A stretch of DNA of 64,000 bases, from assembly GCA_000092065.1 (NCBI GenBank), contig CP000588.1; one strand, given 5' to 3'. The notes below the pieces were generated by a model, which did no database searches, was not told the origin of the DNA, and saw nothing but the letters and a program-made list of their open reading frames with translations. The position numbers and the translations under genes were made by a program. This DNA comes from Ostreococcus lucimarinus. Taxonomy: Eukaryota. This document shows, in pieces, positions 1,366 through 28,899 of the stretch. How positions within the stretch are numbered: the first letter of the stretch is position 1; each line of letters begins with the position of its first letter.

Positions 1366-2460
1366 ATGCAGATTTTCGTGAAGACTCGTGCGTGACGAAG
1401 CGAAGCGAACGAACGATGCGATCGCGAACCGCGCGTCCGCGTCGCGCGCGCGTCGTCGCGAACGACGCGGAGAGACGCGACGCGATCGACGAAAGCCCTA
1501 AAGTCGCGGTGGACGACGAAACGGCGACGAGACGGTCGATGCGACGCGCTTACGGCGTGTCGTGGACGCGAAAACGATTGTGGATAATGTTTTTTGCCGT
1601 TCTCGCGCTATCGTGGAGATGGAGAGGGTGGTGGCGCGGGCGGGGGTTTGGGAGACGTGGTCATGCGATCGGGGGCGCGGCGCGGCGCGCGAGGACGAAG
1701 ACGAGAGACTGACGGTGGATGATGATGTTCGCGAACGCAGTGACGGGTAAGACCATCACCTTGGAGGTGGAGTCCTCGGACACCATCGACAACGTGAAGG
1801 CGAAGATTCAAGACAAGGAGGGTATCCCGCCGGATCAGCAGCGTTTGATCTTTGCGGGGAAGCAGCTCGAAGACGGTCGCACGCTGGCGGATTACAACAT
1901 CCAAAAGGAGTCTACGCTCCACTTGGTGTTGCGCTTGCGTGGTGGTATCATCGAGCCGTCCCTCGTTGTGTTGGCGAAGAAGACGAACGCGGACCGGGCC
2001 GTGTGCCGCAAGTACGTATATTCGAGCGACGGGGTTTTGATTTTTTCTCGGCGCTCGCCCGCTCGAAGGGGCGGCGACCTCACTCTTGCGCGCGCGCTGT
2101 CCGTTGGATTCGTCTAGCGATGTGTGCGCGTCGAGCAAGCTGCCCGAGATTTATTTCACTCCATTCACTTTGCCGGCGACGAGACTTTAACTCGTACTCG
2201 GTCATTCGCGTGTGAGACATTTGACTTTGAGCTCGTACTGACCTTTTTGTTTCTTTCTCAAACCAGGTGCTACGCCCGCCTTCCGCCGCGTGCGACGAAC
2301 TGCCGCAAGAAGAAGTGCGGTCACACCAACCAATTGCGTCTTAAGGTACGTTGTTTTGGACTTGGGAAACTCCTCGCGCGAACGCGACGGCGCCGCCGAT
2401 GAAAGGAGACTGACAATTTTCTCGCCCGATTTTTCCGCTGCTCAGAAAAAGTTGAAGTAA
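1366..2460 (+). CDS. RPL40: Ubiquitin-ribosomal protein eL40 fusion gene with four exons: 1366..1387, 1741..2011, 2267..2345 and 2446..2460.
   Basis: Exon 1 is ATGCAGATTTTCGTGAAGACTC (MQIFVKT) followed by a GTGCGT donor, and is not on the ORF track. Exon 2 starts after the CAG at 1740 and continues ...[11 protein letters not shown]...LRLRGG, then eL40 (IIEPSL...CRK). An intron with a GTACGT donor starts at 2012. Exon 3 is [26 protein letters not shown], followed by a GTACGT donor at 2346. Exon 4 is KKLK then a stop. Each intron has an ACTGAC branch point about 30 nt before the AG. Confidence 0.85.
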
Positions 2461-2587
2461 CCGTGTTGTCGAGCGAGGCGGATAGAACGCGTACACACAC
2501 ACACATTCTAGTTAGCAAGGAGATGGGGTTGTCGTTGTAATGTGACAGGGATATCCTTCATAAAATGATGCAGTCGCTAACGGAGCT

Positions 2588-3832
2588 CTACTTGACGCGA
2601 ATAGTCGCTGCGAGCATGATGTGATCACTCGGCTCTGTCGCCGCCGGGAACGGACCCTTGACTTGGTCACGATGGGGCAAATCGAGCACATCCACAACCT
2701 CGACGTCGTCGGTAACGAAGATGTAATCGAGCGTATCGATGAAAGGGTCGTCGTCCTTGATGCGCGCGTGGTTCGTAAAGTTTGGTTCCTCACCATTGAC
2801 GCGCACGTACGCGCTCTCCATCTTCTTTTGCGGCTTCACATTGAATGGCTCTCCCGTGTATCCGGCGGGCATGATCGGATACCCCTCGTGCGACTCGTCG
2901 AGATCGCCCGTAGTGATCAACGTGTGCCCGGCGTCGCCCGGCTTCAAGTTGAAGTCGCCCATCAACACCGTCGGCAATCCCTCTGACTGATTCAGCGCGT
3001 ATTGCGCCGCGATGCCAGCGTGGATCACCATCACTCGACGATCAGCCGCCGTGCGAAACATGCAAGGCATGTGATACGTCGATACCCCGAACTGCACGTT
3101 CGTCTTTTTGCACTTGAGCGTGGCGTACAGAATCGAGTTGAACCGCCCTCTCGCCGTCTGCCATTCATCGCTCGGCGGTCTGTAATCCCTCAACTTCCGC
3201 CACAAATTCACCGGTGTTTGCACCAACAAATTATAAACCGGCGTCAGCGGTCCGAGATTCACCTCCTCCTTCTTCGCCCTCGGAAACTTTGCCGTATCGC
3301 TCAGCCTCGCGATGTCGCTCTTCACCACCTCGTACGCGTCCGTCGGCACCGCCAATCCAACCCCCATGTAATTATTAAACGGTTTCCCGTACAGCGACAC
3401 GATGAACGCGTATCCCCTCTTCGCAAAGTACGCGTGCAGCGGTCCCGCCCACGTCATGCTCACCTCTTGCAATCCCACGACGGCGCGTCGCTCGACTTCG
3501 GGTTCCAACTTTTCAATCACCCTTCGCAGTCGCGTCTCCGCCCTCAGGTCGTTCGCGTCGCAGTGCGTGAAGTACGTCGGCTCCGCGAGGTGCGAGCTCA
3601 GGACGTTATACGTCACCACGCGCGCGTCGCGCGCGCCGTCCTCGCTCGCTCGCGTCGTCGTCGTCGTCATCCTTCCCTTTGTCGCCGTCGCGCGTCCGCG
3701 CGCCGCGCCCTCGACGCGCGCGCGCGCGCGCGACGGCGCCGCGCCGACCGCGCGTGCGCTCGATCGCGCGTCGATCGCGAGCGCGCGCGATCTCGCGACG
3801 ACGCGCGCGAGGCCGACGGTCGACGCGCGCAT
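2588..3832 (-). CDS. Endonuclease/exonuclease/phosphatase (EEP) family protein with an R/A-rich N-terminal presequence. The true start may be an internal Met near 3670.
   Basis: Translation VVTYNVL...GLQEV...MGDFN...SDH carries EEP catalytic signature residues. It is a single exon. The N-terminal 55 aa are low-complexity R/A/S and look like a transit peptide. Confidence 0.55.
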   Translation of the reverse strand: MRASTVGLARVVARSRALAIDARSSARAVGAAPSRARARVEGAARGRATATKGRMTTTTTRASEDGARDARVVTYNVLSSHLAEPTYFTHCDANDLRAETRLRRVIEKLEPEVERRAVVGLQEVSMTWAGPLHAYFAKRGYAFIVSLYGKPFNNYMGVGLAVPTDAYEVVKSDIARLSDTAKFPRAKKEEVNLGPLTPVYNLLVQTPVNLWRKLRDYRPPSDEWQTARGRFNSILYATLKCKKTNVQFGVSTYHMPCMFRTAADRRVMVIHAGIAAQYALNQSEGLPTVLMGDFNLKPGDAGHTLITTGDLDESHEGYPIMPAGYTGEPFNVKPQKKMESAYVRVNGEEPNFTNHARIKDDDPFIDTLDYIFVTDDVEVVDVLDLPHRDQVKGPFPAATEPSDHIMLAATIRVK

Positions 3833-3879
3833 GCGCGCACTGACGACAGAGCGCGACGCGCGCGCGAACTCGCGTCGAC

Positions 3880-5874
3880 ATGGCGCGGGCGACGACGGCG
3901 CGCGCGCGCGGACGAACGCGCGCGAACGCGACGCGGCGGCGAGGCGCGCGCTGGATCGCGATCGCGGCGACGATGGCGGCGACGGCGACGCGCGGGGCGA
4001 TGATGGCGCTGGCGAGCGATTACCAAGCGAGCGACGCGGCGCTGGTGATGCCGTTCGAACGCGCGGGAGAGCGCGCGATGAAAAGAAAGGTGAGCCTCGA
4101 GGAGACGGAACACGCGCGGACGACGGCGGTGGGAGATAAGGTGCGAGGACCGGAGCGGAGCGCGCGGGCGCTGGGGGTGTTGGCGTCGCTCGCGCGGAGA
4201 CACGAGCGGGCGGCGGCGAACGCGGCGAGCGAGGAAGAGCGCGAGGCGTGCCTGGAACAATTAGAGATAGTGCGGCTCGCGATGGAGTCCGCGCGCGCGA
4301 GGGCGCCGCGAGGGATGGAGGAGAGTGGACGGGCGTTCGCGGCGTTGGGCGCGGCGGCGACGGCGGAGGAGGACGTTTGGGAAGGCTCGGGCGGATTGAT
4401 GGACTCGATTCCGCTTCACGGGGGCGTCGTTCCGGGGACTGCGGGCACGCGTCGTTTTGGGCCTTTGACGACGAAATCGTCGAACGATGACGCTGATGCG
4501 GTGAAGAGATTTTTAGCCACGCGGCGAACGGGCGCCGCGGCGCCCGCGGAGCGGCGTCCGGCGGCGAGAGAACGTCTCGCGCCAGCCGCGCCGTGGTTCA
4601 AGCGAAAGCAGCCGGACGTTTACTGGGACGTTGATTTAGAAAAGATTCAAGGCGCGCGGGAATCGATGGACGCCAAGCGATCGGACGCGGATGATTTCGA
4701 CTTTGAAATCACGGACATGCCGATCAAGGCACGCAAAACCGCGGCGCTCGGCTCCAGTGGCGAAGACGAAAGCGACGTCGAAATCGTTCGATCGACAACG
4801 ATAAGCGACGAACCATCCAACGCGACGGTCGGTATCGACGAGCTCTTTTCTCAACAGGTTGACACGTGGACGAAGCGAGCGATGAAGGGCTTCCAAGAAG
4901 CGAACAAAAAGGCGCGTCAAACGATCGCCACCATCTCTAGGCAAGCGGTGCGCGCTGAGGAGGAGTTACTGATGAAACGAATCGATGTCCGCATGTACGT
5001 TGATTTCGCCGATCCATACTCGCTCGAACTCATGCTCGGGTCGTACCAAAGGCTCGCGTCGATGCCGCTAGGACCGGTCGACTGGAACATCGTGCCCTTC
5101 GTCAACGTAGGCCAGGAAAGGAACAAGTCCGCCAACTGCTTATACAGTGGACACGCTCGGCACTTGAGTTGTACGACAAACGCTATCGCCGCATGCGCGG
5201 TTGAGAACATCGGAACTTTGAGTGGTGGCATGCGAGCGTTTACGTCATGTTACGGAATGCAGCTTCTCAAGCTTGAATCACAAGACGCGTTCAAGTACGG
5301 TCGTCACGAGGAAGCGCTTAGCAAGATCGATGAACGATGCTGTCGAGCTGTCGCTGATGCGGTTGAGCACGAAGAATCGTCCGAATCCGAATCCGACAAA
5401 GAGACGGACAAAAATACGCTGCAACGGTTGGGAATGTCGAGCGCAAACTCACAGATTTGCGCCGCTCAAAAGAAGTGCGCGTTCCACGGCGCCGGGTACG
5501 ATTTGTTGAAAAGCAACGAAGCTGAACTTGGATCAATTCATCCTCGGCATAAATGGCTTCCTTGGGTCACGATCGACGGTGAAGTCGCGTGTCGCAGGAA
5601 GTGCAACTTGCAAGCGACGGTGCGTCGACGAATTTGCAACCTGCGGACTTCGCTTCCGGAAGGATGCCCAAAATTTCCGTGGGCGGAGGCGTGGTACGAC
5701 GAGCCAGAGATTTCTTTCGGAGGTCTCATCGTTACGTGCGCGGCGGTCATGCTTGCGAGTGTATCTCTATTCGTCCTCATGCGCGAAGCCGGGATGAATC
5801 CGCTCGGTCTTTACAAGGACAACGCGAATGAGGGAGCAATCGAAGCGGAGCGAGTCGGGCTACTGCCTAAGTGA
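3880..5874 (+). CDS. Protein with a C-terminal GILT-like (gamma-interferon-inducible thiol reductase family) domain and a C-terminal transmembrane anchor. The long R/A-rich N-terminal region leaves the true start uncertain.
   Basis: GILT family hallmarks are present: IDVRMYVDF..., NIVPFVN, ...HKWLPWVTIDG. The canonical CxxC is replaced by FADPYS. A C-terminal hydrophobic segment (LIVTCAAVMLASVSLFVLM) is present. The first 350 aa are low complexity and could partly be 5' UTR. Confidence 0.4.
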   Translation: MARATTARARGRTRANATRRRGARWIAIAATMAATATRGAMMALASDYQASDAALVMPFERAGERAMKRKVSLEETEHARTTAVGDKVRGPERSARALGVLASLARRHERAAANAASEEEREACLEQLEIVRLAMESARARAPRGMEESGRAFAALGAAATAEEDVWEGSGGLMDSIPLHGGVVPGTAGTRRFGPLTTKSSNDDADAVKRFLATRRTGAAAPAERRPAARERLAPAAPWFKRKQPDVYWDVDLEKIQGARESMDAKRSDADDFDFEITDMPIKARKTAALGSSGEDESDVEIVRSTTISDEPSNATVGIDELFSQQVDTWTKRAMKGFQEANKKARQTIATISRQAVRAEEELLMKRIDVRMYVDFADPYSLELMLGSYQRLASMPLGPVDWNIVPFVNVGQERNKSANCLYSGHARHLSCTTNAIAACAVENIGTLSGGMRAFTSCYGMQLLKLESQDAFKYGRHEEALSKIDERCCRAVADAVEHEESSESESDKETDKNTLQRLGMSSANSQICAAQKKCAFHGAGYDLLKSNEAELGSIHPRHKWLPWVTIDGEVACRRKCNLQATVRRRICNLRTSLPEGCPKFPWAEAWYDEPEISFGGLIVTCAAVMLASVSLFVLMREAGMNPLGLYKDNANEGAIEAERVGLLPK

Positions 5875-5962
5875 GAAATCATATAGCCATCAATTTTTTA
5901 ATGTAACATGTACTTCAGCGGCAAAGGCAAACGCGCAGATTACAGTCAGCGCGACGACGACG

Positions 5963-6940
5963 TCAGAAAATCACGCCGCCCGCGGCTTCGAAGGCGTCTT
6001 TCGAATCTATCGGGATTAAGTCACCCACGGTCAAAAGCTCGAACGATGGCGCGGGCGCGGCTAGAATTGCGCTCCATTCATCCTTTGAAAAGTCCCGGCG
6101 AGAAAACGTGGTCTCCGTAAACTCGCCGTCGGCGTCCACTATATCCTCTACTGGTCCTCTAGATACCGTGATCCAGTGTCTATCTTCATTCACGGCATCA
6201 TCAACGATCGGTGGGAACGCTTGCATGTGAAAAGACCAATCGTTTCTTGACTTCCCATCCACCGACACGCTCGCCGTTGACCTCGCCGCGTCGATGTCAA
6301 ACTCGCACCGCCTCAAATCCATCCCGAGTCCCACCCCGATCGCCTTCACGTGCGCCTCCTTCAGGCTCCAGTGCTTTCTAAACAACTCCTCTCCCGCGCG
6401 TTCTCCGTCCCTCGCCGCTACACCCGCGATCGACGCCCGCTCGCGATCCGTCAGGACCGACGAAAACGTCTCCAACAACTTTCCCACGTCTCGCTCCGCG
6501 CCCCCCCCTCCCGTCACTCGTCGCACCTGTCCCGGCGCCGCCACGTCCACTCCCACCACCGCGTGCGTTTCACTCGCCAGCACGACGTAATCACCCTCGT
6601 GCGAGACGTTATAATTAAAATTCGGCGCCCCCGCGACGCTCGCGCGCGCCCCGTGAAACGGCTTCGACCCTTTGGTTCTCCGCACGTCCAGCGCCTCCAC
6701 GCGCGCGTCTCGCCACCGCGCGTCCTCCGCGCTCGCACACGCGCGTTTAATCGCCGCGCGTTGCATCAATCGCGACAGCAACGCGCGCTTACGGTCTTCA
6801 AAGCGATGAAATCGCGTCACTTCTTCGCGTTCGTGCGTCGGGAGGATCGTCAAGACGAAGGCGAACTCGTCGACGCCGGGGCGCCACGTCGTGGAGTTGA
6901 CGATCCAGCGCAGGCGCAGGTGATCGGCGGTGTCGAGCAT
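5963..6940 (-). CDS. 4'-phosphopantetheinyl transferase, Sfp/AASDHPPT type.
   Basis: Motifs FNYNVSHEGDYVVLA and WSLKEAHVKAIGVG are present. The start is taken at MLDTADH, whose ATG lies at 6938-6940 on the minus strand. The ORF track extends further upstream to 7144, probably into the UTR. Confidence 0.7.
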   Translation of the reverse strand: MLDTADHLRLRWIVNSTTWRPGVDEFAFVLTILPTHEREEVTRFHRFEDRKRALLSRLMQRAAIKRACASAEDARWRDARVEALDVRRTKGSKPFHGARASVAGAPNFNYNVSHEGDYVVLASETHAVVGVDVAAPGQVRRVTGGGGAERDVGKLLETFSSVLTDRERASIAGVAARDGERAGEELFRKHWSLKEAHVKAIGVGLGMDLRRCEFDIDAARSTASVSVDGKSRNDWSFHMQAFPPIVDDAVNEDRHWITVSRGPVEDIVDADGEFTETTFSRRDFSKDEWSAILAAPAPSFELLTVGDLIPIDSKDAFEAAGGVIF

Positions 6941-7140
6941 GGCGCCCGAAGGCGCGGGAAGCGCGACGGGGCGCGATGTGCGGCGCGCGCGCGTCGATGT
7001 CGAGTGCGAGCGTTTTCTGGCGGTTACACATCCGTCGACGAGGCGACGCGACGAACGCGGAGGAGAGGTACGAATACATATGAATACATCGCGCGCGACG
7101 CGTTGAACCGAGTTGGATTTACGAATCGAATCTCGCCGTA

Positions 7141-8454
7141 TCAAATCTCGCCGTTCAGGATGCCCTCGCGAACGCGACGCATCTTATCGCCCATGTGATA
7201 CAGGTTGTGCTCGCTCGCCAAGGACCAAGCGAGCGGTTCGTTGGCGCGATCGAGGTGATGAAGATAGCCCAAGGTGTGCTTGGTGCAGAGCGTGCACTCG
7301 CACTCTTCGCACGCGGGTTCGGTGCTGGTTCGGAATTCGGCGCGACGGAAGTTTATGCGTCCGCGAGAGCGCGTGAATAGCGTGCCGTGTCTCGCCACTT
7401 GAGTCGGGTAGCAACTGTCGAACGTGTCGACGCCGTTCGCCACCGCGTGCTCGATGTTTTCCATGTCAGCGATCCCCAGGAGGTGATTCGGCAAGTGTTT
7501 CGGAAGGAGAGGCATCAAAAACTCGAGCAAAGCGCCGAGTTCGGCGGCGTCGCGGCCGAGAGAACCGCCAATCGCGAGCCCGTCGAACGGCAGGGCGCTC
7601 AGGTACTCGACCGACATCCGTCGTAGCTCGCGATCCACGCCTCCGTGCACGACGCCGTACATCGCCTGTTGACGCACGTCCTTCAAGTGCGTCTCCAAAC
7701 TCCTCGTCATCCATCGATGCGACCGATGCACGCTCTCCTCCAACGTCTCGCGATCGATGTCGTACGGCGGCAACTCGTCGAGCGGAATGATGATGTCCGC
7801 CCCGATTTGTTTCTGACTCAACACGCTCGACTCCGGCGTGAGCGTCATCTTCGTCCCGTCCCTGTACGACCGAAACGTCGCCCCCTCTTCGCTCACGTCG
7901 ATCAATAAATTCTCCCGTCGATGCTTCGTCGCCTTTCTGCTCTTCAACTCCTTCGTCTTCCCCTTCGCGTTCGCCGAGCGGTCCGGCGTCCCGAGCGAAA
8001 ACACCTGAAACCCACCGCTGTCCGTGATCACCGGCCCTCGGCGTCCCATGAACGCGTGTATCCCTCCCATCGCCTCCACCGTCGCCGCGCCCGGCTGCAG
8101 CATCAGGTGATACGTGTTCGCGAACATCAAATCGATCCCGGCGCGCCGCAGCGCGTCGCCCCGCACCGCCTTCATCGCCGCGTTCGTCCCGACCGCGACG
8201 TACCCCGGCGTCGCGATCGTCCCGCGCGGCGTGTGAATCATCCCCGCCCGCGCGTTCGAGCGCGTCGACGCGCGCAGGACCTCGAACCGGAAGCGCGGCG
8301 ACGCCGGCGACGCCGCCGGCGCCCGCTCGAGACGCGCGTCGGTCGACGCGCTCGAACGCGCCGACGCCGACGCGTCGCGCGCGCGCGCGCATCGCGACGC
8401 GCGCGCGACGCGGTCGAGGACGCCGCGCGCGCGCGCGACGCGCGCGACGCGCAT
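7141..8454 (-). CDS. Queuine tRNA-ribosyltransferase catalytic subunit (tRNA-guanine transglycosylase). The start is ambiguous, with Met codons at 8454, 8511 and 8544.
   Basis: The translation shows FEVLRASTRSNARAG, NTYHLMLQPG, DSGGFQVFSLG and the zinc-site CxCxxC..H (CECTLCTKHTLGYLHHL). The 5' end runs into the 53-bp tandem repeat, which creates alternative in-frame starts. Confidence 0.75.
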   Translation of the reverse strand: MRVARVARARGVLDRVARASRCARARDASASARSSASTDARLERAPAASPASPRFRFEVLRASTRSNARAGMIHTPRGTIATPGYVAVGTNAAMKAVRGDALRRAGIDLMFANTYHLMLQPGAATVEAMGGIHAFMGRRGPVITDSGGFQVFSLGTPDRSANAKGKTKELKSRKATKHRRENLLIDVSEEGATFRSYRDGTKMTLTPESSVLSQKQIGADIIIPLDELPPYDIDRETLEESVHRSHRWMTRSLETHLKDVRQQAMYGVVHGGVDRELRRMSVEYLSALPFDGLAIGGSLGRDAAELGALLEFLMPLLPKHLPNHLLGIADMENIEHAVANGVDTFDSCYPTQVARHGTLFTRSRGRINFRRAEFRTSTEPACEECECTLCTKHTLGYLHHLDRANEPLAWSLASEHNLYHMGDKMRRVREGILNGEI

Positions 8455-8493
8455 CGCGTCGCGATGCGCCGCGCGCGCGACCGTCGCGCGCGC

Positions 8494-8640
8494 GTCCGAC
8501 CGACCGCACATTACACGACTGTTTACCCACACACAGACCGCCATCGCGTCCGACCGACCGCACACACCGCACTGTTTACCCACACACAGACCGCCATCGC
8601 GTCCGACCGACCGCACACACCGCACTGTTTACCCACACAC
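8494..8640. repeat. Tandem repeat with a period of about 53-54 bp and about 2.7 copies (unit gtccgaccgaccgcaca...gtttacccacacacagaccgccatcgc).
   Basis: Direct reading finds unit starts at 8494, 8548 and 8601, and the copies differ only in a short central segment. The repeat sits between the divergent QTRT and RAD51 genes. It explains the duplicated MRCVRSVGRDGGLCVGKQ N-termini of two overlapping minus-strand ORFs. Confidence 0.8.
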
Positions 8641-8699
8641 CGATCCGCGTCCACCCGGTGACGCGCGCCGTCGCGGCGTCACCTCGCGACGCGATCGCG

Positions 8700-8870
8700 A
8701 TGTCGGCGTGCGCCGTCGACGACCGCGCGCTCGCGCGAGACGACGACGTCGCGCGCGACGAACCGATCGCGACGACGACGCCGATCGCCGCGCTCGAGGT
8801 GCGACGACGCGCGACGACGCGCGCGAACGACGACGCGAACGACGACGCGATGCGATTCGAACGAGTCGTT

Positions 8871-8915
<45 letters not shown>

Positions 8916-10110
8916 ACGCGCGACGAGGGACGCGACGGACGACGCGCGACGGCGCGTTCGCGCGGATGACGACTGACGACGAACGAACGGCGACGCCGAA
9001 CGGACTCGGACGACGCAGGAATCTGGGATCGCGGCGTCCGACGTGAGCAAGCTGCGCGACGCGGGCGTGCACACGGTGGAGGGACTCGCGGCGGCGTCGA
9101 GGAAGCACCTGCAATCGATCAAGGGGCTGTCGGAACAGAAGGTGGAGAAGCTGAAGCAAGCGGGTGCGAGCGAGGCGCGAGGCGAGGCGACGCGAGCGAA
9201 CGCGCGAGGACGCGGGGGGGGCGCGACGCGCGAGGGCGACGCGAGAGGTGCCTCGTTTGATGGATTGAAAGCGAGCACCCGAGGAGACTGACGAGAGACG
9301 CGACGACGCGCGAGCGACGCAGCGAACGCGATCGTGCCCGCGGGATTCACGACGGCGAAGATGATCGATCAGCAGCGTCAGGATACGATATATATCACGA
9401 CGGGTTCGGCCAAGGTGGACGAATTGTTGCAGGGGGGGATCGAAAGCGGGAGCGTGACGGAGATTTACGGCGAGTTCAGGACGGGGAAGACGCAGTTGAT
9501 GCACACGCTCGCGGTGACGAGCCAGATGCCGATCGAGCACGGTGGTGGCGAGGGTAAGTGTCTGTACATCGATACCGAAGGCACGTTCCGTCCGCAGCGG
9601 TTGATTCAGATCGCCGAGAGATTCAACATGGATCCCTCGGCGGTGCTGGATAACGTGGCGTACGCCAAGGCGCACAACGTCGAACATCAGAGCGAACTTT
9701 TGCTCGCCGCCGCAGGAATGATGGCGGAGACGCGATTCTCGCTCATGATTATCGACTCCGTCACCAATCTCTACCGCACCGAATACGAAGGTCGCGGTGA
9801 ACTGAGCGCGCGTCAGATGCACCTCGGGAAATTTTTGCGCCAACTCGCCCGTCTCGCGGATGAGTTCGGCGTCGCCGTCATCGTATCGAACCAAGTCGTC
9901 GCTAACCCTGAAGGCGGACCATTCGCGGGAGCGAATGCGCTCAAACCCATCGGCGGGAACATCATGGCGCACGCGAGCACGACGCGATTAGCCCTTCGCA
10001 AGGGGCGCGGAGAGAACAGAGTGATGAAAGTCGTGTGTTCTCCCGTGCTGCCGGAATCGGAGGCGCAATTTTCCATCAGCGAGTTTGGTATCGAAGACGC
10101 CAAGGATTAA
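8700..10110 (+). CDS. RAD51: RAD51 recombinase with three exons: 8700..8798, 9019..9163 and 9323..10110.
   Basis: Exon 1 is MSACAVDD...PIAALE with a GTGCGA donor at 8799. Exon 2 is [23 protein letters not shown]...KLKQA (an HhH N-domain) with a GTGCGA donor at 9164. Exon 3 is [12 protein letters not shown]...GEFRTGKTQ (Walker A)...LADEFGVAV...[15 protein letters not shown]. Both introns have an ACTGAC branch point and a CAG acceptor. The protein is closer to RAD51 than to DMC1 ([16 protein letters not shown]). Confidence 0.85.
8873..8910. repeat. (GACGAC)n trinucleotide microsatellite inside RAD51 intron 1.
   Basis: An uninterrupted gacgacgacgac... run of about 38 nt is seen directly in the sequence. 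Confidence 0.8.
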
Positions 10111-10168
10111 AGCGAGCGAAGACGTTTCCATGTATTTCATAATTTTACAACTTTCGTTCCACTACGTC

Positions 10169-11107: not shown

Positions 11108-11199
11108 GAGTCGCGCGATGCAGTGACGTCGAAGTCGGTAAATATTTCAAGCTCTGATTTTACAACGGCGTCGCGACGACGCGCGCGCGCGAATCCGGG

Positions 11200-12753
11200 C
11201 TACGATTTATCGCCGGGAAGAGCGATCGATTTAGGCTTGCGCTGACGAACTTTTTTCGACTTTGGAACCGTCGCCGGGACGCTGTTCGCCGGGCGCTTGG
11301 CGCCTGCGGCGGCGCCGGCGGAGACGACGCTACCGCTCGACGTCATCCGACGGACGACGACGCTGACGGATCGATCGGTGGAATCGAGCGGTAAGGCGCG
11401 AGACTTCTGCGCGCGACCGATTGCATCTTTCGTTACCGCACCGTCGAGACGTTCGAACGCGTCGTTGGCGCGTTTGGTGTCGGTAAACGTGACGAGGCAG
11501 GAGGTGGTTTTTTTGCCGCCGAGAGCCGCGGAGTCCGTCGTCGTCGCATCGAGAAAGCTTCCCTGCACGCTCTCGATGTGCGCTCGATCGGTTTCTTCGA
11601 ACACCATCTTCAACGCCTCCGCGCTCGTCCCACGCGGAATGCGATGGATAAAAAGCTTGCACAGGTCCTCGGCGTCCACTTTGTGCGGCGGCGCGTCCAC
11701 CTCAAAGATGGGTTTCGCCTCGCGAACCGCCCATAACACTAAGTCTAATGCCGCTTTGGCGTCCTCGACGGAATCGTGATAGCCCGCCTCAGTTTGTCTC
11801 ATCTTTCGTTTGAGCAAAGTTTCGCACAAAATCGCCAAGCTCGGCGTCGACCGAGGGAGATTCTTGTAACGAAACAACATTCCAGTGTCGATGACGGGTT
11901 GATGGTCAATCTTTAAAGACTTCAAATCATGCATCAACGAATGACCCACGAGCACAGTTCCCGGTTTACACAACTCCACGAGTCTATCCTGCACGTCGCT
12001 CAACGTCGTCGGCGCCGCGAGGACGTTCTCCGCCTTCAACCCAGTAATCTCCGTTCTCATGTCGACGATGTTCCCCGGCGGCTTCACGAGCGTCTTCAAC
12101 AAAATATTTCCCTCATCATCCACCACGGACACCCCGACGAGCGCTCGCGTGTCGTCATCCGTCTCACACATCTCACAATCCACCCCCAACAACCTCGGCT
12201 TCATCTCTTTCTCCACGCACCAACGCACGGGTCGATACTTTGTCCGTCGCCACGGCGGTTCGTGCGACGGCAACCGATAATACGCCTCCGCGAACCCCTC
12301 ATGCTTTCGCGTTCGTCGCACCAGCGCCCACGCTCGATCACCCTTCGCATCGACGACCTCGTCGTCGCCCCACTCGTCCCACTCCGCGCGTTTCTTCCGC
12401 CATTGATCGTGTTTCGTCAGCGCCGTCACGCGCGCCGTCCCGAGCGCCGTCCCGAGCGTCTCCACAAACTTTCTCAGCGTCTCCGCCGTGTGCCGGCTCG
12501 GATCGCCTCGTTGGTTCTCCGGTCGCTTCACGTTCGCCTTGAGCCACGCCTTGAAGTCGCACCCCGGGTGTTCGCTCGGCGCGGCGGTGAATCGACGCTG
12601 CGCATCCTTGACCACGCGCACGAGCGCGGCGAATTCCTGTTCGAGACGTGACCGCGTCAGTCCACAGCGCGCCTCGCGACGACGCGCGCCATCTTCCACG
12701 CGCGACGAACGACGCGACGCGCGCGCGCGCCGCACCTCGGCGCTCGTCGGCAT
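11200..12753 (-). CDS. DEDDh 3'-5' RNA exonuclease of the REXO1/small-RNA-degrading-nuclease type.
   Basis: The exonuclease motifs LLGVDCEM (Exo I), GHSLMHDLKSL (Exo II) and YHDSVEDAKAALDL (Exo III) are present, with a C-terminal RRM-like region. Only 92 bp separate its stop from the start of the downstream gene. Confidence 0.65.
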   Translation of the reverse strand: MPTSAEVRRARASRRSSRVEDGARRREARCGLTRSRLEQEFAALVRVVKDAQRRFTAAPSEHPGCDFKAWLKANVKRPENQRGDPSRHTAETLRKFVETLGTALGTARVTALTKHDQWRKKRAEWDEWGDDEVVDAKGDRAWALVRRTRKHEGFAEAYYRLPSHEPPWRRTKYRPVRWCVEKEMKPRLLGVDCEMCETDDDTRALVGVSVVDDEGNILLKTLVKPPGNIVDMRTEITGLKAENVLAAPTTLSDVQDRLVELCKPGTVLVGHSLMHDLKSLKIDHQPVIDTGMLFRYKNLPRSTPSLAILCETLLKRKMRQTEAGYHDSVEDAKAALDLVLWAVREAKPIFEVDAPPHKVDAEDLCKLFIHRIPRGTSAEALKMVFEETDRAHIESVQGSFLDATTTDSAALGGKKTTSCLVTFTDTKRANDAFERLDGAVTKDAIGRAQKSRALPLDSTDRSVSVVVRRMTSSGSVVSAGAAAGAKRPANSVPATVPKSKKVRQRKPKSIALPGDKS

Positions 12754-13337: not shown

Positions 13338-13371
13338 ACGACGGCGACGCGAACGACGAACCGCGACGACG

Positions 13372-13820
13372 ATGAGCGACGACGAGGACGTGAAGAAGGA
13401 GGTGAAGGAGGATCACATCAACATCAAAGTTCGGGACATGGTAAGACGGCGCGAAGACGGCGCGAGGGCGGCGAAGACGCGCGCGGGATGGATGGATGGA
13501 TTTTAAACGTCATCGCGTCGACGTCGAGGGAACGACGCGCGAGGCGCGCGCGAGAGGCGAGCGAGGCGAGAGAGGACTGACGATCGAACGCGCGGCGCGG
13601 CGATGGGCAGGATAACAACGAGGTGCACTTCAAGGTGCGACCGTCGACGAAGTTTTCAAAGGTGTTCGACGCGTACTGCCAACGCAAGGCGTTGCAGCCG
13701 AACGCGGTTCGATTTTTGATGGACGGTGAGCGGTTGCGGCCGGATCAAACGCCGGAGGAGATGGACATGGAGGATGGCGATTGCATCGATGCGATGATGG
13801 AGCAGGTGGGCGGGGGCTGA
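13372..13820 (+). CDS. SUMO: SUMO (small ubiquitin-like modifier) with two exons: about 13372..13440 and about 13610..13820.
   Basis: Exon 1 is MSDDEDVKKEVKEDHINIKVRDM, followed by a GTAAGA donor, and is not on the ORF track. The intron has an ACTGAC branch point and a GGGCAG acceptor. Exon 2 is DNNEVHFKVRPSTKFSKVFDAYCQRKALQ...MDMEDGDCIDAMMEQVGGG then a stop, giving a di-Gly C-terminus. Borders are within 1-2 nt. Confidence 0.8.
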
Positions 13821-13943
13821 GCGGGGAACGCGGGGACGACGCGGACGCGGACGAGACGCGATTTAGGATCAAACGCCATAATGTGATAACGATGCGCATC
13901 GACTCTTGATTTCATTCTGCTACGTCTATTACTGGTGCTTCGC

Positions 13944-20079: not shown

Positions 20080-20200
20080 CTTATGACGTTCACTCTGAAC
20101 GTCGCATGACGGCGTACCCTAGCCCACACCGAGTTGTGATAAAAATTTCATGGTCGCTCTCGACGTCGTTGTCGCGCGCGCGACGTGGGAACTTCAAACC

Positions 20201-21241: not shown

Positions 21242-21280
21242 GTCTCACGCGCGACGTCTCTTCCGACCGACGACTCTTCT

Positions 21281-21304
21281 GACGACCGACCGACCGACCG
21301 ACCG
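21281..21304. repeat. (CGAC)n tetranucleotide microsatellite in the 3' flank of the F-box-like gene.
   Basis: cgaccgaccgaccgaccgaccgag is read directly from the sequence. Confidence 0.7.
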
Positions 21305-21738
21305 AGATCGCCGCCACGTCAGCGTGCCCACGCCGGGATCTTTATCTCGCCGCGCGCGGCACTTTTTCCCATATATCCGCGCGACGAATCTGTTTTACGA
21401 CGAAAAGTGAACACAAAAATCGCGACCCCGGACGCTTTTTCAGACACCCGGATTAAACCGGAAAAACCCGCGCCGGAGACCCCGCACTGCATCTCGCGCG
21501 TGCGTCGCGTGCGAACATCCCGACTCGCGCGGTGCGGTGCTGCCGGACGAAACATATTGTCCACGCGCGCGCGCGCGCTTTTGAAGCGCTGACGATCGCG
21601 CGTCGACGCGAATTCGCTGAGAATTCGAACGCACATCCGCGCGGGACGAACGTGCACTTTTCGCGCGAGTTTTTCGTCGCGCGGCGGGTGTGGCGACCGC
21701 GCGCGGACGGTGCGCGCGGGTGAATCGGACGCGGGAAT

Positions 21739-22955
21739 ATGACTTCGCCGATTCTCGTGCCGGGCGCGCACGGAGGAGAGTCCGCGAACGCGATGGACGG
21801 CGCGACGTCGCCGCCGCAACTCGGCGCGCCGCGAGAGGTTTGCCGCGATTTTTTAAAGGTGGGTCGTCTTGAGTCGTGACTCGTCGTTTTCGCGAAAAGA
21901 CCCTTTCGAGCTCGAGCGAGAAAACGGTCGATCTGGCGATCGATCGACGCGAATCGAGCGATGTGGTCGTGAAGATACTGACGATGGTGTGCGCGCTTCG
22001 CTTCGCGACGCAGGGAGCGTGTTTCCGGGAGAATTGTCGATACGCGCACGACGCGGCGGAGGGCGCGGCGGTGCCGACGCAGACGACGCAACCGGTTTGC
22101 AGAGACTATCAAAACGGTCGATGCTTCCGAGCTTCGTGCAGGTTTTATCACGGTTCCAACGCTGAGCAAGTAGCGGTGCAGCTTGGCGCGGGTAATCGAA
22201 TGTTCCCTGGATCCATCAACGGCGCGCAAGGGATGTACGGCGCCGCCACTGGCGACTTGTTGCACAACAAGAATCCGCAGTTGCACATGATGAACAGGAC
22301 GATGAATCTTCCCATGAACATGGTGGGCAACCCCGATCCCGCGGCTTTGCTTGGCGCCGACGCGAGTACTGCGGCTTTACTCGGAGGCAATTTGAGCTTG
22401 GAACAAGCGCTGTTTTTGCAAACGGCGATGGCAAACGGGACGGCGTACGATAATAACGCCGCGCTCACCGCCGTGGCCATGGCAAACGAGATTCTCCGAA
22501 GAAACGCCGCTGGACAGCAAGCACCGAACGGTAATTACGATATGAGCTCGATGTACGCGCAGCAAATGGCGACGGTGGTTGCGCAGCAGCAAGCGGCACT
22601 CGCACAGCAAATGGCTGCGGCGAATGGTCAATTGACAAACGGCGGCTTCGCCCCTCTCAACAACGGAGAGAAATTGTCGAAAGATGCCGGTGTTGGCGGT
22701 GCGTACCAACAAGCAGTTGCAGCAGCGAGCGCAGCGATGAACAATCCATCTGCCCCCGGTGAGCAATTTTCTTGGACTGGGATCGAATACGCCACAAACG
22801 GAGTCCACCAACAAAATCAATTTAAGCCAGTCGACTCCATCGCCGCGCTTCCGGATTCATTAGTCGACAATGATCTCTTTGGATTTGTCAACTCGGAAAT
22901 GTCAAACGCAGCCGCCGCGTTTGTTCCTGGATCTGCTTTGGGGAACCTCCAATGA
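21739..22955 (+). CDS. Tandem CCCH zinc-finger protein with two exons: 21739..21858 and 22014..22955.
   Basis: Exon 1 is MTSPILVPGAHGG...REVCRDFLK, followed by a GTGGGT donor. The intron has an ACTGAC branch point and an ACGCAG acceptor. Exon 2 is GACFRENCRYAH, completing a C-x7-C-x5-C-x3-H finger across the intron. A second finger (CRDYQNGRCFRASCRFYH) follows, then a Q/A/N-rich low-complexity tail. Confidence 0.7.
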
Positions 22956-23402
22956 CACAGCTCGCAGCTGCCGCGCGCTGTTGGATTTATTTTTCTCCGT
23001 GGTCGAGGCACTAACGTTTTGTTTGTGCGTGCACTTTTTGAGAGCCTCGATGACCTTGATACGATGAATTTTTGTGTATATTTAAGAGAAACCGGACTGG
23101 TACTGATACACGGCACTGGATTACATCCATTGTCCGAGTCAGTACGTCGTCCCATGGTTCGCTCGAACCGCCCGCTTCGCTGGCCCGTCGCTCAGCTCAT
23201 TTCCCTTAAAGATTAGTTTCATAGCCCCACTATCACGCGTAGCTCGTTAGTGGTGTCAATACAATTTTGTACAGTTTTGCTCCAAAACGCGGCGCGCGAT
23301 CGATGCATAAAGGCGACGTGTTGAATAAATGTGTTTGGTTATTTCCGAATTGTGGCTAATCTATCGCGCAGAAAGTTGATTCAAGCAAACAAACCTTCCT
23401 CT

Positions 23403-24212
23403 TTAAGCAGACAAGGCGGCGACTTCATCGCGCGCTTGCGGCACATCCACTTGCACGGACGGGCCCATGCTAGACGCAATGTACATGGAGCGCCAGTAGA
23501 CACCCTTAGCACCGACCGGACGGTTCGCGTCAATCGCGCCGACGACGGAGAGAAGGTTCTCCTTCAAGTCGGCGGCGCTGAAGCTGAGCTTACCAAACGG
23601 AACGTGCACGATACCTTGCTTATCCGCGCGGAACTCAACCTTACCCCCCTTGAACTCATTGACAGTCGTCGTGACGTCAGTAGTCACCGTACCCGCCTTT
23701 GGGTTCGGCATGAGACCCTTCGGGCCGAGCTGACGACCGAGCTTGGCCACCTTCGGCATCATATCCGGAGTGGCGACGAGCAAGTCAAAATCCATCATAC
23801 CGCCCGCAATCTCGTCAACCAAGTCATCATCACCCGCAAAGTCGGCACCCGCCGCTTTCGCCGCGGCGATGTTGTCGCCCGCGCACAAAACAGCGACGCG
23901 AACGTTCTTGCCCGTGCCCTTCGGCAACGCCACAGTCGCGCGCAACTGCTGGTCGTTGTACTTCGGGTCGATGTTCAATCGAATGTGCAGCTCGGCCGAT
24001 TCGTCAAACTTGGCCGTGGCCGAGCTCTTCATGAGTTCAATCGCCGCGCTCGCGCCCTGCGTCTCCAGGCGCGGCGGCACGGACTTTTGCGCGGCGCGGA
24101 ATCGCTTAGACTGCTTGGCCTCCTTGGAGCTCAAGCCATCCTTGCGAACCGCGCGCGTCGGCGCCGCCGCCTCTTGTTCGAGCTCAGAAAAGTCCAAACC
24201 CGCGGCGCGCAC
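23403..24212 (-). CDS. Bacterial-type (organellar) 50S ribosomal protein L1. Only the main exon is listed here, and a short upstream exon is likely.
   Basis: The family is supported by [40 protein letters not shown] and [21 protein letters not shown]. The ORF begins immediately after an in-frame stop and has no ATG. Upstream on the minus strand there is an AGACTGAC branch point, a T-rich tract and a TAG acceptor. Together these imply a 5' exon near 24450-24483 (MATARGRGGG... candidate). Confidence 0.7.
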
Positions 24213-24866
24213 GACTATTCGTTCGAAAAAAGCAAAACATGCCGTTTAAGGTCAGTCTCTCATCGTCATCACTCGACGCGCGCCCCTCGATCCCCCCCCC
24301 CTCCGCGCTCGCCCCGTCGCGCGCGTCTGGGTTTTCACCCAGTCCAGGTTTAGGGTCTCCACCGACCCATCGTCGCCCGTCCCACCCCTCGCGCGCGCTC
24401 GCGCGCCCTCCCCGCCCCCTCGCGCGCGCGCCGTTCGCGCCGTAAAATTCACCACCACCACCCCTCCCTCGCGCCGTCGCCATCGCGTCGACGCATCGCG
24501 CGTCGCGCCCCTCGTCGTCGCCCCGTCGTCGCGTCGCGTCGCGGTCGCACCTCGCGTCCTCGTCGTCGTCCTCTTCGTCGCCGTCCCTCGCGCGGTCGTC
24601 GCGAGGGCGGAGTACTGCGTCGTGAGCGCGAACATCGTGCGTCGCGATCGGCGATCGGCGCGGTCGGCGCGTCGTCGAGTGCGGCGTCGGCGCCGTCGCG
24701 CGCGCGCGGAATCGATAACGTGGCGGCCCGTCGAGGGGGACTCGCGCTCGAGTCGGGACCCGTCGTCGAGCCCCAGCCACGTGCGCACAATCCAGGATGG
24801 GGTTTTGTTATTTCGCGACGCCCGCGACGCCGCGCGGCGACCGCGCGCGCGACCGCGACGCGCGCG

Positions 24867-25989
24867 ATGCGCGCCGCGTCGAGGACCGCGCTCGACGCGC
24901 GCGCGCTCGCGACGCGCGCGGCGACGGGACGAGGACGACGACGCGACGCGACGGCGACGGCGAGCGTCGAAAAGATTCCGAGAGGAGGTGCGACGCGCGA
25001 AGACGCGCGCGCGACGCGATGCGAACGCGAGACGCGATGCGAGCGCGGGAAAAAAGGGGACTGACGATGCGACGCGCGCGCGCGAATCGCGCGCAGCGGG
25101 AGCGACGGGAGAGCGGACGCTCGCGGTGTGCCTGGGGAAGTTTGACGCGATGCACCGGGGACACCTCGCGCTCGCCGAGCGGGCGGCGACGAGGGGCGAC
25201 GTCGTCGTGGTGTCGTTTTCGGGGATGGCGGAGACGTTGGGGTGGGAAACGCGGTTGCCGATCACGGCGCCGAGCGATCGATCGCGCGTGTTGGCGATGT
25301 GGAGCGGGACGACGGGCGCGGCGGTGAGCGAGCACGCGTTGGCGTTCGGCGACGTGCGAGAGCTGTCGCCGGAGGCGTTCGTGGAGATGTTGGCGCGAAT
25401 GGGCGTCGGTGCGGTGGTGACTGGGAAAAATTATAGGTTTGGTTACAAAGCGGCGGGAGACGTCGAGGCTTTGAAGAGGTTTGGCGAGGCGAACGGGCTG
25501 ACGGTGGACGTCGTGGATTTGGTGCCGGCGCGGCGACCCTCGTCGGCGGGCCTAGGTGACCAAGTGAGCAGTTCGCGCATCAGAAGCGCGCTGAGCGCCG
25601 GTGATATCGACGAAGTGAACGAAATGTTAGGCCGTGAGCACAGAGTGGTGTGCGATATGACGGGAGAGCGCGCGGCGAACGCGCTTCGAGCCGCCGTCGA
25701 TCGCAACTTGGACGAGATTAACCTCTCGCTCGAATCCGCGGAAAATCAGCCCCCGAGCGACGGCGCGTACTCCGCGCGCGTGTACGTCGATCCAGTTTCT
25801 ACTGACACCGCCGTGTCCCCGCGAACGGTCTCCGTGAAGGTATCTTACGGCCGACTCTCCATCGACCGCGCCGACGTTCCCGAAATCGTGAGCGCCCGCG
25901 AGCGCGTCGCCATCGATTTCATTGCCCGCGAGAGTAAAGTCCACGCTTTCAGCGTCTCCGGTCGCTGGAACCCTAACGATCGAACCTAG
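24867..25989 (+). CDS. FAD synthetase (FMN adenylyltransferase, plant RibF-like) with two exons: 24867..24987 and 25097..25989.
   Basis: Exon 1 is MRAASRTALDARALATRAATGRGRRRDATATASVEKIPRG, a transit-peptide-like segment, followed by a GTGCGA donor. The intron has a GGGACTGAC branch point and a GCGCAG acceptor. Exon 2 is AGATGERTLAVCLGKFDAMHRGHLALAE..., the nucleotidyltransferase HxGH-type motif, followed by a RibF-like C-terminal region. The ORF track frame 24622..25989 has no ATG upstream of the domain. Confidence 0.6.
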
Positions 25990-26127
25990 CGGCCCAGCGT
26001 GCGGTTCTTTGAGATTTTAATCCTCGCGCTCGCTCACAATTTGTTCATTCATTCTTTTTTATTCAACATCGTAACGAAACGCCCTTTCGTGTCCCGTCCC
26101 GCACTTTGACACCCGCGGCGCGCCGCC

Positions 26128-28899
26128 ATGACCGCCACCGAAGGTGACGCGGAAGACAATAAAGTCTTCGTCGCCGTGCGCGTGCGTCCGCTGAACGCGA
26201 GCGAGCGCAACGCGAGCGCCAGCGCATGGAACGTCGTGTCGACGAACGCGATTGCGCCGCAGGTGCGTCGAAAGAAAAGAAACGAATCTAACGTCGTGAA
26301 CCGCTGCTTCCGCCGACGTTGCGCCGATGACGCTCGCGCACTCGTATGATGGGTCTCGAGCGTGAGCTACGGCGACGCGCGAGCGCGAAGGCGCGCGATG
26401 AAGACGCGCGATGATGAACGCGCGCTCGGGGGAACCAATCAGAATCTGACAAAGGCGCGCGCGGATGATTTTTACGCACGGCAGGATGGCGCGTCGACGA
26501 CGTACGCGTTCGATCGCGTGTTTGATGAAACGAGCGATAATAGAGCGGTGTACGAGGCGACGACGTCGAAGATAGTGCAGAACGTAATCGGGGGATTTAA
26601 CGGAACGGTGTTCGCGTACGGGCAGACGTCCAGCGGGAAGACGCACACGATGCACGGGACGAAGGAGGAGTTAGGGGTGATACCGCTCGCAGTGCGCGAT
26701 GTGTTTGATGCGGTACGAAGACACGGGAGCGATCGAGAGTTTTTGATTCGAGTGAGTTATTTGGAGATTTACAACGAGAAGATGATGGACTTGTTCGACG
26801 GCGCCGGAGAAGATGAAGAGACGTCAAAGTTGTCAATTCGTGAGGATAAAGAGCGAGGGACGTACGTGATGGGTCTGCGAGAAGAGGTCGTGACGACACC
26901 ATCGCAAGTGCTAGCGCTTCTAGAGCTCGGGACGACGCGCAGGCACGTCGGGGCGACGAATATGAACGCGCACTCGTCTCGTTCGCACACGATTTTCCGA
27001 ATGATCGTCGAGTCAAGGGCGATCAGTGGGGGGATGCAGGGCGGTGCCGACGACGGCGCTGCGGTTTTAGTGTCCACTTTAAACTTGGTCGATCTCGCCG
27101 GGTCCGAGCGCATGTCAAAAACGGGTGCCGAAGGGCAGCGTGCCAAGGAGGGCGCGCACATCAACAAGAGTTTGATGACGCTCGGAGTCGTCATCAACAA
27201 ACTTTCCGAAGGCGTCGAGTCCAAGGGAGGTCATATTCCCTATCGTGATTCAAAGTTGACTCGTATTTTACAGCCTGCGCTTGGTGGGAACTCCAAGACC
27301 GCCATCGTGTGCGCGATGACCCCGGCGGCGTCGCACTGCGAAGAGACGCACTCGACGCTGAAATTCGCCCAGCGCGCCAAACGCGTCGTCAACAAGGCGA
27401 CTAAGAACGAGGTCGCCGCGAATGGTGCCACGAATGCGATGCTGAAACGTCAACAGAAGGAAATAGCCGCGCTTAAAGCGCGTTTGGAAGAGGAAGGGTG
27501 CGCCAAAGTGGACGACAAAGCCATCGAGGCTTTGCGAAGGCGTCTAGCCGAAGCCGACCGTGAGAAGAATCTCATGGCGCTCGCCCTGGAGGACGGGGAA
27601 GAGAAGGCCAAGGAGCGCGAGGCGAAGATTTCCGAGCTCGAGGCAAAAGTAAAGGAGCTCAACGACGCGTTGAACGAAGCAAAGGCGCGAGACGAAGAAG
27701 AAGACCCACACACGGTTGAGGTGCGTTTGAATTCAAAACGCCTTTCGCCGGAACAGCAGTCACTCTCCGCGATGACGCCTGACACCCTTCAAGCCGTGCG
27801 GGCGTTCGAAGCGAAGATTGCGGCACTTGAAAAGGATCGCGATGAGCTAAAGTCCAAGGCGAGCGATCTCGAGCGCTCAGAGAAGCGTCGAGAGGAGCTC
27901 GAGCGTCAACGCCTGGATGCAGTGCGGGACATCGCCTCACTCAAGGAGGAAATCGCCGAAATAACCGCCGCGATGGTGGATAGCGATGGCACGAACGGCG
28001 CCGGGGATGTTCAAATACTTCTTGCACAAGCTAAACGCGCTCGTGCGCGCGCGGAAGACGAGCTTTCGAGTATCAAGGCGGAGTTTTTCGAGGAAAAGTC
28101 CCGGCGCGCCGTCGCCGAGGCGGAGGCCAAGCGTCTCGACGACAAACTTACGTCTTTACTCGAATCACAAAAGGACGGTGGGAATGCAGCGCACAGCAGT
28201 GATGTTGATTCCAAATCGTTGGCTCATTTGGCCCTGCGCAAGCAAGTCGTCAAGCAAAACGAAACCATCTCTTTGCTTGAGGCGCGCGTCAAGGAATCCG
28301 ACCAAATGCTTGACGAAGCCATCAAGGTGTACGAGGAGGAGGTGGCGAAGAACAAGCGGCTGATCGAGGCAGGTGTTGCGACGCAAGGTGATGAAATTCT
28401 AGCCGATCTTAACGCTGATGTCGATACGGACGCCGCCCTCGAAGCTTTAGAGGCGGAGCGACGCGCGAACGATGACTTGACCAAGCGGTGCGCAACGCTG
28501 GAGAAGAAATATTCCGTCGCCAAGGCTGCATTTGCCAAGCTCTCGAGTGAAAAGACAAAGGAAAATGACAACGCCAGCGATAAACTCAAGCGCGAAAACA
28601 AGGAGCTAAAGCGTCAAATGCACAAGCTCACTGAAGTCTACGCCCGACTGCGCGAGAAGTTTGCCGCGGGTGGTGACGCATTCGACAAAGTCAAGGACGC
28701 GACCGAGCTGAAGTACGATCTCCAGGCGCTCGAAAGAAAGCGGCAGATCGAGAAACAAGCACTCTTAGCGAAGATCAAGGAGTTCGAGGACATCGCCGCG
28801 TCGAACGGCCACGTATCTGAGCAAGGATCAGCGAAAAGGGTGAAGCGCGACTCGGGCGTCCCGCTCGCCGACGGCGCGAATCGACACCGAGTCGAGTGA
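26128..28899 (+). CDS. Kinesin-like motor protein, kinesin-7/CENP-E-like, with an N-terminal motor and a long coiled-coil tail. Two exons: 26128..26262 and 26485..28899.
   Basis: Exon 1 is MTATEGDAEDNKVFVAVRVRPLN...NAIAPQ, followed by a GTGCGT donor. The intron has a TCTGAC branch point and a GGCAG acceptor. Exon 2 is DGASTTYAFDRVFDE...GQTSSGKTHTM (P-loop)...NMNAHSSRSHTIFRM (switch I)...LVDLAGSE (switch II)...HIPYRDSKLTRILQ. About 500 aa of heptad-rich coiled coil follow. Confidence 0.8.

Follow-up and report, generated by a model that had tools for sequence, protein, structure and literature searches.

The 64 kb stretch of Ostreococcus lucimarinus DNA analysed here (the window, meaning the whole stretch; about 37 genes, 49–68% GC per 2 kb) contains 13 introns with an unusually constant set of splice signals, the most prominent being the hexamer ACTGAC close to the 3′ splice site. 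They are best explained as ordinary GT-AG introns of the U2 type, removed by the major spliceosome, that carry the canonical and unusually information-rich signals of this species (probability about 0.95). A first-pass annotation of the same DNA had interpreted them as spliceosomal, and their rigid branch signal as one typical for the intron-poor, compact genomes of mamiellophytes; that reading is supported, and the same signature has been published for the species. The gene density of the window is typical of this compact genome, and two genomic Logan contigs (L001 and L002) match it at 100% identity.

Introns of the window

Nine introns had been proposed by the first-pass annotation, and all nine were confirmed in place, their removal giving open frames and conserved proteins. 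Four more were found, in the genes for organellar uL1, plastid bL31, seryl-tRNA synthetase (SerRS) and a NEMP-like protein, when the two strands were searched for [AT]CTGAC upstream of an acceptor and the coding frames were checked. All 13 have GT…AG ends and restore an open frame when removed. They range from 100 to 353 nt in length (2,629 nt in all) and from 0.53 to 0.75 in GC content. Each line below gives the coordinates, strand, intron, length, 5′ splice site, branch box, distance of the presumed branch A from the intron 3′ end, and acceptor.

1388–1740 (+), ubiquitin-eL40 intron 1 (I1): 353 nt; GTGCGT; GACTGACG at 1707–1714; 28 nt; ACGCAG
2012–2266 (+), ubiquitin-eL40 I2: 255 nt; GTACGT; TACTGACC at 2236–2243 (ACTGAC); 25 nt; T-rich tail, CAG
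2346–2445 (+), ubiquitin-eL40 I3: 100 nt; GTACGT; GACTGACA (ACTGAC); 32 nt; CAG
8799–9018 (+), RAD51 I1: 220 nt; GTGCGA; GACTGACG at 8971–8978; 42 nt; ACGCAG; a (GAC)n microsatellite lies inside
9164–9322 (+), RAD51 I2: 159 nt, phase 1; GTGCGA; GACTGACG at 9286–9293; 31 nt; ACGCAG
13441–13610 (+), SUMO intron: 170 nt; GTAAGA; GACTGACG; 30 nt; CAG
21859–22013 (+), CCCH zinc-finger gene intron: 155 nt; GTGGGT; TACTGACG (ACTGAC); 32 nt; ACGCAG
24988–25096 (+), FAD synthetase (FADS) intron, predicted: 109 nt, phase 1; GTGCGA; GACTGACG; 32 nt; CAG; exon 1 at 24867–24987
26263–26484 (+), kinesin intron: 222 nt; GTGCGT; AATCTGACAA, with TCTGAC (AATCTGAC) at 26445–26450; 35 nt; CAG
24215–24550 (-), organellar uL1 (L1) intron: 336 nt; GTGCGA; GACTGACC (ACTGAC); 37 nt; TAG; exon 1 at 24635–24551
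41999–42201 (-), plastid bL31 intron: 203 nt; GTGCGT; GACTGACG; 36 nt; ACGCAG; adjoins the ATG start codon
46172–46369 (-), SerRS intron: 198 nt; GTGCGC; GACTGACG; 33 nt; ACGCAG
61969–62117 (+), NEMP-family gene intron, predicted only: 149 nt, phase 1; GTGCGG; GACTGACG; 25 nt; TAG

The gene models that follow from the nine introns of the first-pass annotation have these exons.

Ubiquitin-eL40: 1366–1387, 1741–2011, 2267–2345, 2446–2460
RAD51: 8700–8798, 9019–9163, 9323–10110
SUMO: 13372–13440, 13611–13821
CCCH zinc-finger gene: 21739–21858, 22014–22955
FADS: 24867–24987, 25097–25989
Kinesin: 26128–26262, 26485–28899

Splice signals and their expected frequency

The branch motif is ACTGAC in 12 of the 13 introns and TCTGAC in the other, and eight carry the extended box GACTGACG. 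In every case the presumed branch A lies 25–42 nt from the intron 3′ end. Donors are GTGCGN in nine introns, GTACGT in two, and GTAAGA and GTGGGT in one each; the GTGCGT(G)/GYGCGY 5′ splice site is a consensus, not a rule. Acceptors are CAG (11/13) or TAG (2/13), with an ACGCAG context in six. Among the nine introns first proposed, the CAG acceptor holds throughout. The hexamer had been attributed to all nine and was found in eight, the exception being kinesin, with AATCTGAC and no ACTGAC. The donor set given as GTGCGT, GTGCGA and GTACGT covers seven and leaves out SUMO (GTAAGA) and CCCH (GTGGGT), while the form (A/G)(A/G)ACTGAC occurs in five and not in the remaining four. A spacing of 25–40 nt before the acceptor describes most of them, but when measured to the last intron base the range is 25–42 nt, with RAD51 I1 (42) as the outlier.

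Could the hexamers be a compositional by-product of GC-rich, GACG-type low-complexity sequence, present by chance and without function? The introns are indeed of low complexity and rich in GACGCG, coding sequence contains copies of ACTGAC too (12661 (-), 23681 (-) and 15800 (+) among them), and across the window the bare hexamer is not enriched (23 copies observed, 22.5 expected). Its distribution is nevertheless far from random. Introns, read on their sense strand, make up 2% of the sequence space and contain 12 of the 23 copies, one per intron and always 25–42 nt from the acceptor; the rest of the two strands, ~125 kb, has the other 11. Against 0.23 copies expected on the intron sense strand, 12 corresponds to a Poisson P of ~4e-17, an enrichment that is partly circular, as the motif itself led to four of the introns; of the eight defined without it (three in ubiquitin-eL40, two in RAD51, and those of SUMO, CCCH and kinesin), seven have ACTGAC. 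In composition-matched shuffles, the hexamer fell within the last ~50 nt of an intron with a probability of 0.004–0.011. The extended box GACTGACG is present in 10 copies (4.2 expected), eight of which are the intron branch positions. The hexamer is also retained in diverged orthologous introns (see below), and statistics for the whole genome have been published (PMC2483917). The positional statistics and the conservation across lineages therefore refute an origin by chance, which we regard as having practically no probability left.

Transcript and protein support for the junctions

Use of the junctions was assessed by looking for the exact 30 nt spliced sequence (15 + 15) in contigs of public assemblies. 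Six of the nine introns first proposed have such a junction in cDNA-type contigs, and bL31 brings the number to seven. The three ubiquitin-eL40 introns are spliced out in six ENA contigs (L010–L015), and I2 is present unspliced in the genomic contig L001. The SUMO junction was matched exactly in L003–L006, the CCCH junction in L007–L009 (contigs 100% identical to the window), and that of RAD51 I2 in L016–L020. One contig of the same sequencing project, L089, starts with the SMART template-switch oligo TGGTATCAACGCAGAGTACGGGG, and the contigs of that project are therefore RNA-derived (cDNA). L089 itself reads …GTGCATG/CCTCGC (here and below, a slash marks a junction), which is the spliced bL31 junction directly after the ATG.

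Protein comparisons extend this support. Two spliced products are identical to NCBI proteins of O. lucimarinus CCE9901, bL31 (81 aa) to XP_001419346.1 and RAD51 (343 aa) to XP_001419122.1. A Pfam domain is complete only after splicing in kinesin, SerRS and bL31. For kinesin, only the spliced product matches the Pfam motor model over its whole length (1–327), across the junction, which supports the intron; in SerRS, the match to the Seryl_tRNA_N model (1–108) is likewise complete over the junction. For uL1, the 5′ exon predicted by the first-pass annotation is borne out by a transcript-derived homologue (P0070/L021), with which the spliced N-terminus, MFALT…VVRAAGLDF, aligns end to end at 79% identity. 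The spliced models of FADS, kinesin, L1, SerRS and the NEMP-like protein had no exact match in the protein collection. A chimeric query made of seven junction-spanning peptides returned mostly open reading frames (ORFs) on unspliced genomic contigs, and was informative for L1 (P0070) and the FADS indels only.

Several points weigh against reading all 13 as canonical introns of one kind. No transcript of this species was found for FADS, kinesin, SerRS or the NEMP-like gene, and L1 is covered only through the homologous transcript. All five RAD51 cDNA contigs of this species (L016–L020) keep the 3′ part of I1. Two donors (GTAAGA and GTGGGT) and one branch box (TCTGAC) deviate, i.e., the consensus is strong but not uniform. 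The search for extra introns was driven by the motif, and introns lacking it could have been overlooked. Finally, the A of ACTGAC is the presumed branch point by its position, its strand and analogy.

The RAD51 cDNA contigs begin within I1, at 8888–8971, and run unspliced through the acceptor at 9018, yet I2 has been removed from them. The intron may be retained, transcription may start within it, or the assembly may have broken at the (GAC)n repeat (8873–8912), which differs in length among environmental contigs (L022–L029).

Some of the predicted introns, namely those of FADS (24988–25096) and the NEMP-like gene (61969–62117) and possibly RAD51 I1, might be poorly removed or not be introns at all, with other start codons or retention instead. 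The retained RAD51 I1 sequence, the lack of a spliced transcript for FADS and the NEMP-like gene, and a stretch with the same signature that is demonstrably unspliced (12735–12637 (-), see below) all fit such a view. On the other side, RAD51 I1 is part of the NCBI model, splits a conserved peptide (PIAALE/ESGIAASD), and is missing from a full-length orthologous transcript of a sister lineage (L025/P0073). Without splicing, no ATG upstream of the conserved GKFD motif of FADS would be in frame, and environmental variants carry frame-shifting indels in an A-run within the putative intron. Taken together, non-splicing of these few seems rather unlikely, and we count them among the 13 introns, those of FADS and the NEMP-like gene as predictions, the latter from frame logic.

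Frame logic favours the FADS 5′ exon proposed by the first-pass annotation, with the ATG at 24867 as the start (the first ATG, at 24797, does not match the frame that splicing gives), and the FAD_syn domain begins just past the junction; a dedicated search found no transcript across that junction. ORFs called on unspliced genomic contigs (proteins P0062, P0065 and P0067) read through the intron in three different frames, because of 1 nt indels in or near an A6 run (25050–25055). Further truncated or read-through database ORFs were seen for RAD51 (249 aa), SerRS (610 aa) and kinesin (833–845 aa), and many of the database 'proteins' for this organism, environmental ones included, are thus intron read-throughs or 5′-truncated.

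RAD51 introns in related lineages

A scan of JGI metagenomes for RAD51 gave 67 loci. Those with 93–99.6% identity to M. commoda RAD51 (P0076) are called Micromonas-like, and those with 84–100% identity to the window protein and 56–63% GC are presumed to be Ostreococcus-like. Both introns occupy the same codon positions in the two groups, and the I2 position is kept in about 45 metagenomic loci. Among distinct Ostreococcus-like sequences, ACTGAC is present in 19/19 copies of I2, which vary from 150 to 317 nt and are otherwise diverged, and in 12/14 copies of I1 (146–227 nt), where the exceptions are ACTAAC and ATTGAC; combined, this amounts to 31/33. In the Micromonas-like introns (I1 and I2 together), ACTGAC is found in 3/21 and NCTGAC in 11/21, the others having CTAAC, CTCAC or CTTAC; their donors include GTGAGT, GTAAGT and GTACGC, and their tails are C/T-rich. 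Retention of the hexamer while length and the rest of the sequence diverge indicates that exact ACTGAC is under purifying selection in Ostreococcus, and that the constraint is looser in Micromonas. By these comparisons, the exact hexamer is an Ostreococcus trait.

The same loci bear on the idea that the window introns stem from a family of mobile introner elements, such as IE-C of Micromonas, and owe their uniformity to recent common descent instead of selection on splice signals. IE-C elements of Micromonas RCC299 have the GACTGACG box too (PMC3879977), and blastn reports many short matches between the introns of the window. However, comparison of the 13 introns showed these matches to be low-complexity segments of 16–117 nt (69–100% identity) at inconsistent positions, with no full-length similarity, and the intron lengths are spread over 100–353 nt. 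The RAD51 intron positions shared between the Ostreococcus-like and Micromonas-like lineages mean that both of these introns are old. A mobile origin is accordingly very unlikely, and selection on the splice signals of ordinary introns remains the preferred explanation.

Apart from its splice signals, RAD51 I2 holds a short GGTGCC…GAGCACCC element (9247–9280) that is conserved across Mamiellales (loci L022–L081). Ostreococcus-like loci have it as an inverted pair, GGGTGCC…GAGCACC(C), the window copy being GGTGCCTCGTTTGATGGATTGAAAGCGAGCACCC; the Micromonas-like version is (C)TTGGCACCCC in I2, and GAGGCACCCC or TTGGCACCCC in I1. None of the other 12 window introns has such a GCACCC-type element. 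Its GCACC could base-pair with the G/GUGC donor, to which it is complementary, and does so in the minimum-free-energy fold. The I2 hairpin (GGTGCC/GAGCACC) is not supported as an RNA structure, with no compensatory pairs in nine lineages and a pre-mRNA that folds no more stably than shuffled sequences (z = 0.14). A cis-regulatory role in this DNA-repair gene is one possibility for the element. In an environmental O. lucimarinus-like contig (L028, position 2648 onward), the I2 donor reads GGGGCG instead of GTGCGA, possibly a sequencing error, or else an allele with a dead donor.

Segments between the branch box and the acceptor

In most of the introns, the branch-to-acceptor segment lacks a polypyrimidine tract. 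These segments have less than 45% pyrimidine in 8/13, and 0–8% T in 6/13. The introns as a whole are skewed towards purines and poor in T (6–9% T in six of them). T-rich tails are found instead in ubiquitin-eL40 I2 and I3 and in the L1 intron, all in ribosomal-protein genes. In contrast, the Micromonas-like RAD51 introns keep C/T-rich tails. We suggest, tentatively and as an idea that we rate as doubtful, that the GACTGACG box together with an (A)CGCAG acceptor may substitute for the polypyrimidine tract in O. lucimarinus. If so, recognition of the 3′ splice site would be largely independent of the interaction between U2AF65 and the polypyrimidine tract.

Finding short first exons

The first-pass annotation had proposed its splice signature as a practical rule for finding missed exons, and the rule works: it gave the first exons of bL31, SerRS and L1, each of which is independently supported. 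Its specificity is imperfect, as it also yielded one in-frame hit in an RNase T ORF:

12637–12735 (-), RNase T: 99 nt, in frame; GTGCGG…GGACTGACG…CAG

This stretch is kept in two cDNA contigs (L003 and L016), which makes it a false positive of the rule unless it is an optional intron.

The remaining ACTGAC sites that were considered, at 12661 (-), 15800, 19728, 19879, 23143 (-), 23681 (-), 25801, 44686 (-), 57996 (-), 62914 and 3839, were rejected as introns, either for want of a suitable acceptor or as parts of uninterrupted coding sequence. A stop codon precedes a further candidate, 39889–39947, which is no intron either.

The rule is of practical value for annotating the genomes of Mamiellophyceae, and also metagenomic contigs. 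With the signature GTGCG…GACTGACG…N25–40…YAG one can locate very short first exons overlooked by ORF-based gene callers, such as those of bL31 (whose first coding exon is just the ATG) and SerRS (15 codons), as well as the exons for the transit peptides of L1 and (predicted) FADS.

Proposed mechanism of recognition

The signals can be placed within the established spliceosome model, from which the following scheme is derived. The 5′ site is of the GTGCG type (GYGCGY), and the branch box (G)ACTGAC(G) has its presumed bulged A 25–42 nt before (ACG)CAG or TAG. ACUGAC could pair with the invariant GUAGUA of U2 snRNA (A-U, C-G, U-A, G.U, bulged A, C-G), which would fix the branch adenosine. Given the short and constrained spacing between branch and acceptor, the first suitable YAG downstream would be the one used. 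GUGCGU would pair imperfectly with a standard U1 snRNA, with G.U at +3 and a mismatch at +4. In so intron-poor a genome (13 introns in about 37 genes of the window), every intron keeps near-consensus signals.

U12-type introns have the donor RTATCCTT and the branch sequence TCCTTAAC 10–15 nt from the 3′ end, and U12-type donor or branch sequences were found in none of the 13 introns. An Rfam scan of the window found no U1 or U2 snRNA, nor any other RNA family. A compensating U1 snRNA that would match GUGCGU was considered and rejected, as the literature gives the standard ACUUAC in Mamiellales (bioRxiv 10.1101/2022.06.08.495308).

Other features of the window

At 42204–39943 (-), the stop codon of bL31 (TGA, 41758–41756) is followed, one base on, by the first ATG (41754) of a 603 aa RAP-domain ORF on the same strand. 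The SMART cDNA L089 is 100% identical to the window, has a capped 5′ end, and joins spliced bL31 to the RAP ORF in a single molecule. The pair is a candidate dicistronic mRNA, the alternative being an assembly merge of overlapping transcripts; dicistronic mRNAs of this sort have been described in green algae (PMC7896298).

The motif CCCTAAA, similar to the plant telomere repeat or telo-box, occurs in the first introns of ubiquitin-eL40 (1496–1502) and L1 (24349–24355 (-)); the window has four copies, compared with 1.4 expected. It recurs as a tandem CCTAAACCCTAAACCCTA at 61611–61628, within the divergent promoter that precedes the NEMP-like gene.

Comparison with known systems

The signature has been known for this species since 2008 and was extended to Micromonas in 2013. 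In their study of EST (expressed sequence tag)-confirmed O. lucimarinus introns outside chromosome 2, Irimia and Roy (2008) found ACTGAC in 87.2% and GACTGACG in 66.5%, with GTGCGTG as the 5′ consensus (PMC2483917). The corresponding values here are 12/13 and 8/13, and the window introns share the atypical GTGCGTG-type donor and the intron-poor context, with no essential difference. The local detail added by the window consists of the mostly T-poor tails, the ACGCAG acceptors (6/13) and the TAG acceptors (2/13).

Canonical introns of Micromonas have an AG/GTGCGT donor and an NCTGAC branch motif (Verhelst et al. 2013, PMC3879977), both as in the window; the GACTGACG box of the IE-C elements and, in Micromonas-like loci, the RAD51 intron positions are also shared. 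They differ in that any base may open the hexamer, and in the reported position of the motif, 43–52 nt before the acceptor (PMC3879977). Unlike the introner elements of Micromonas, the 13 window introns, compared with one another, are not repeated elements. Across Mamiellales, donors follow GYGCGY, and the standard U1 pairing sequence was present in all five species examined by Roy and Bowser (2022; bioRxiv 10.1101/2022.06.08.495308).

A second class of introns in the same genomes, the small introns of low-GC regions (BOC1; chromosome 2 of O. lucimarinus), shares the GT-AG ends. These are 40–65 nt long and AT-rich, with no detectable branch motif (PMC3491373), whereas the window introns are 100–353 nt long, have 53–75% GC and carry strong motifs; no intron of the window fits the small AT-rich class. 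The window itself, at 49–68% GC per 2 kb, is of normal GC content, unlike the low-GC outlier region.

Intron-poor eukaryotes in general have strong branch and donor signals (PMC2483917), and a parallel is found in the hemiascomycete yeasts (GTATGT…TACTAAC…YAG), which are likewise intron-poor, with a near-invariant branch box at a constrained 3′ distance (PMC2483917). Both systems also tolerate a pyrimidine at donor position +4 without compensation in U1 snRNA (PMC2483917; bioRxiv 10.1101/2022.06.08.495308). The differences are in the sequences themselves: the Ostreococcus box is ACTGAC, with a G.U wobble to U2, in place of ACTAAC, the donor is GTGCGT in place of GTATGT, and the introns are GC-rich.

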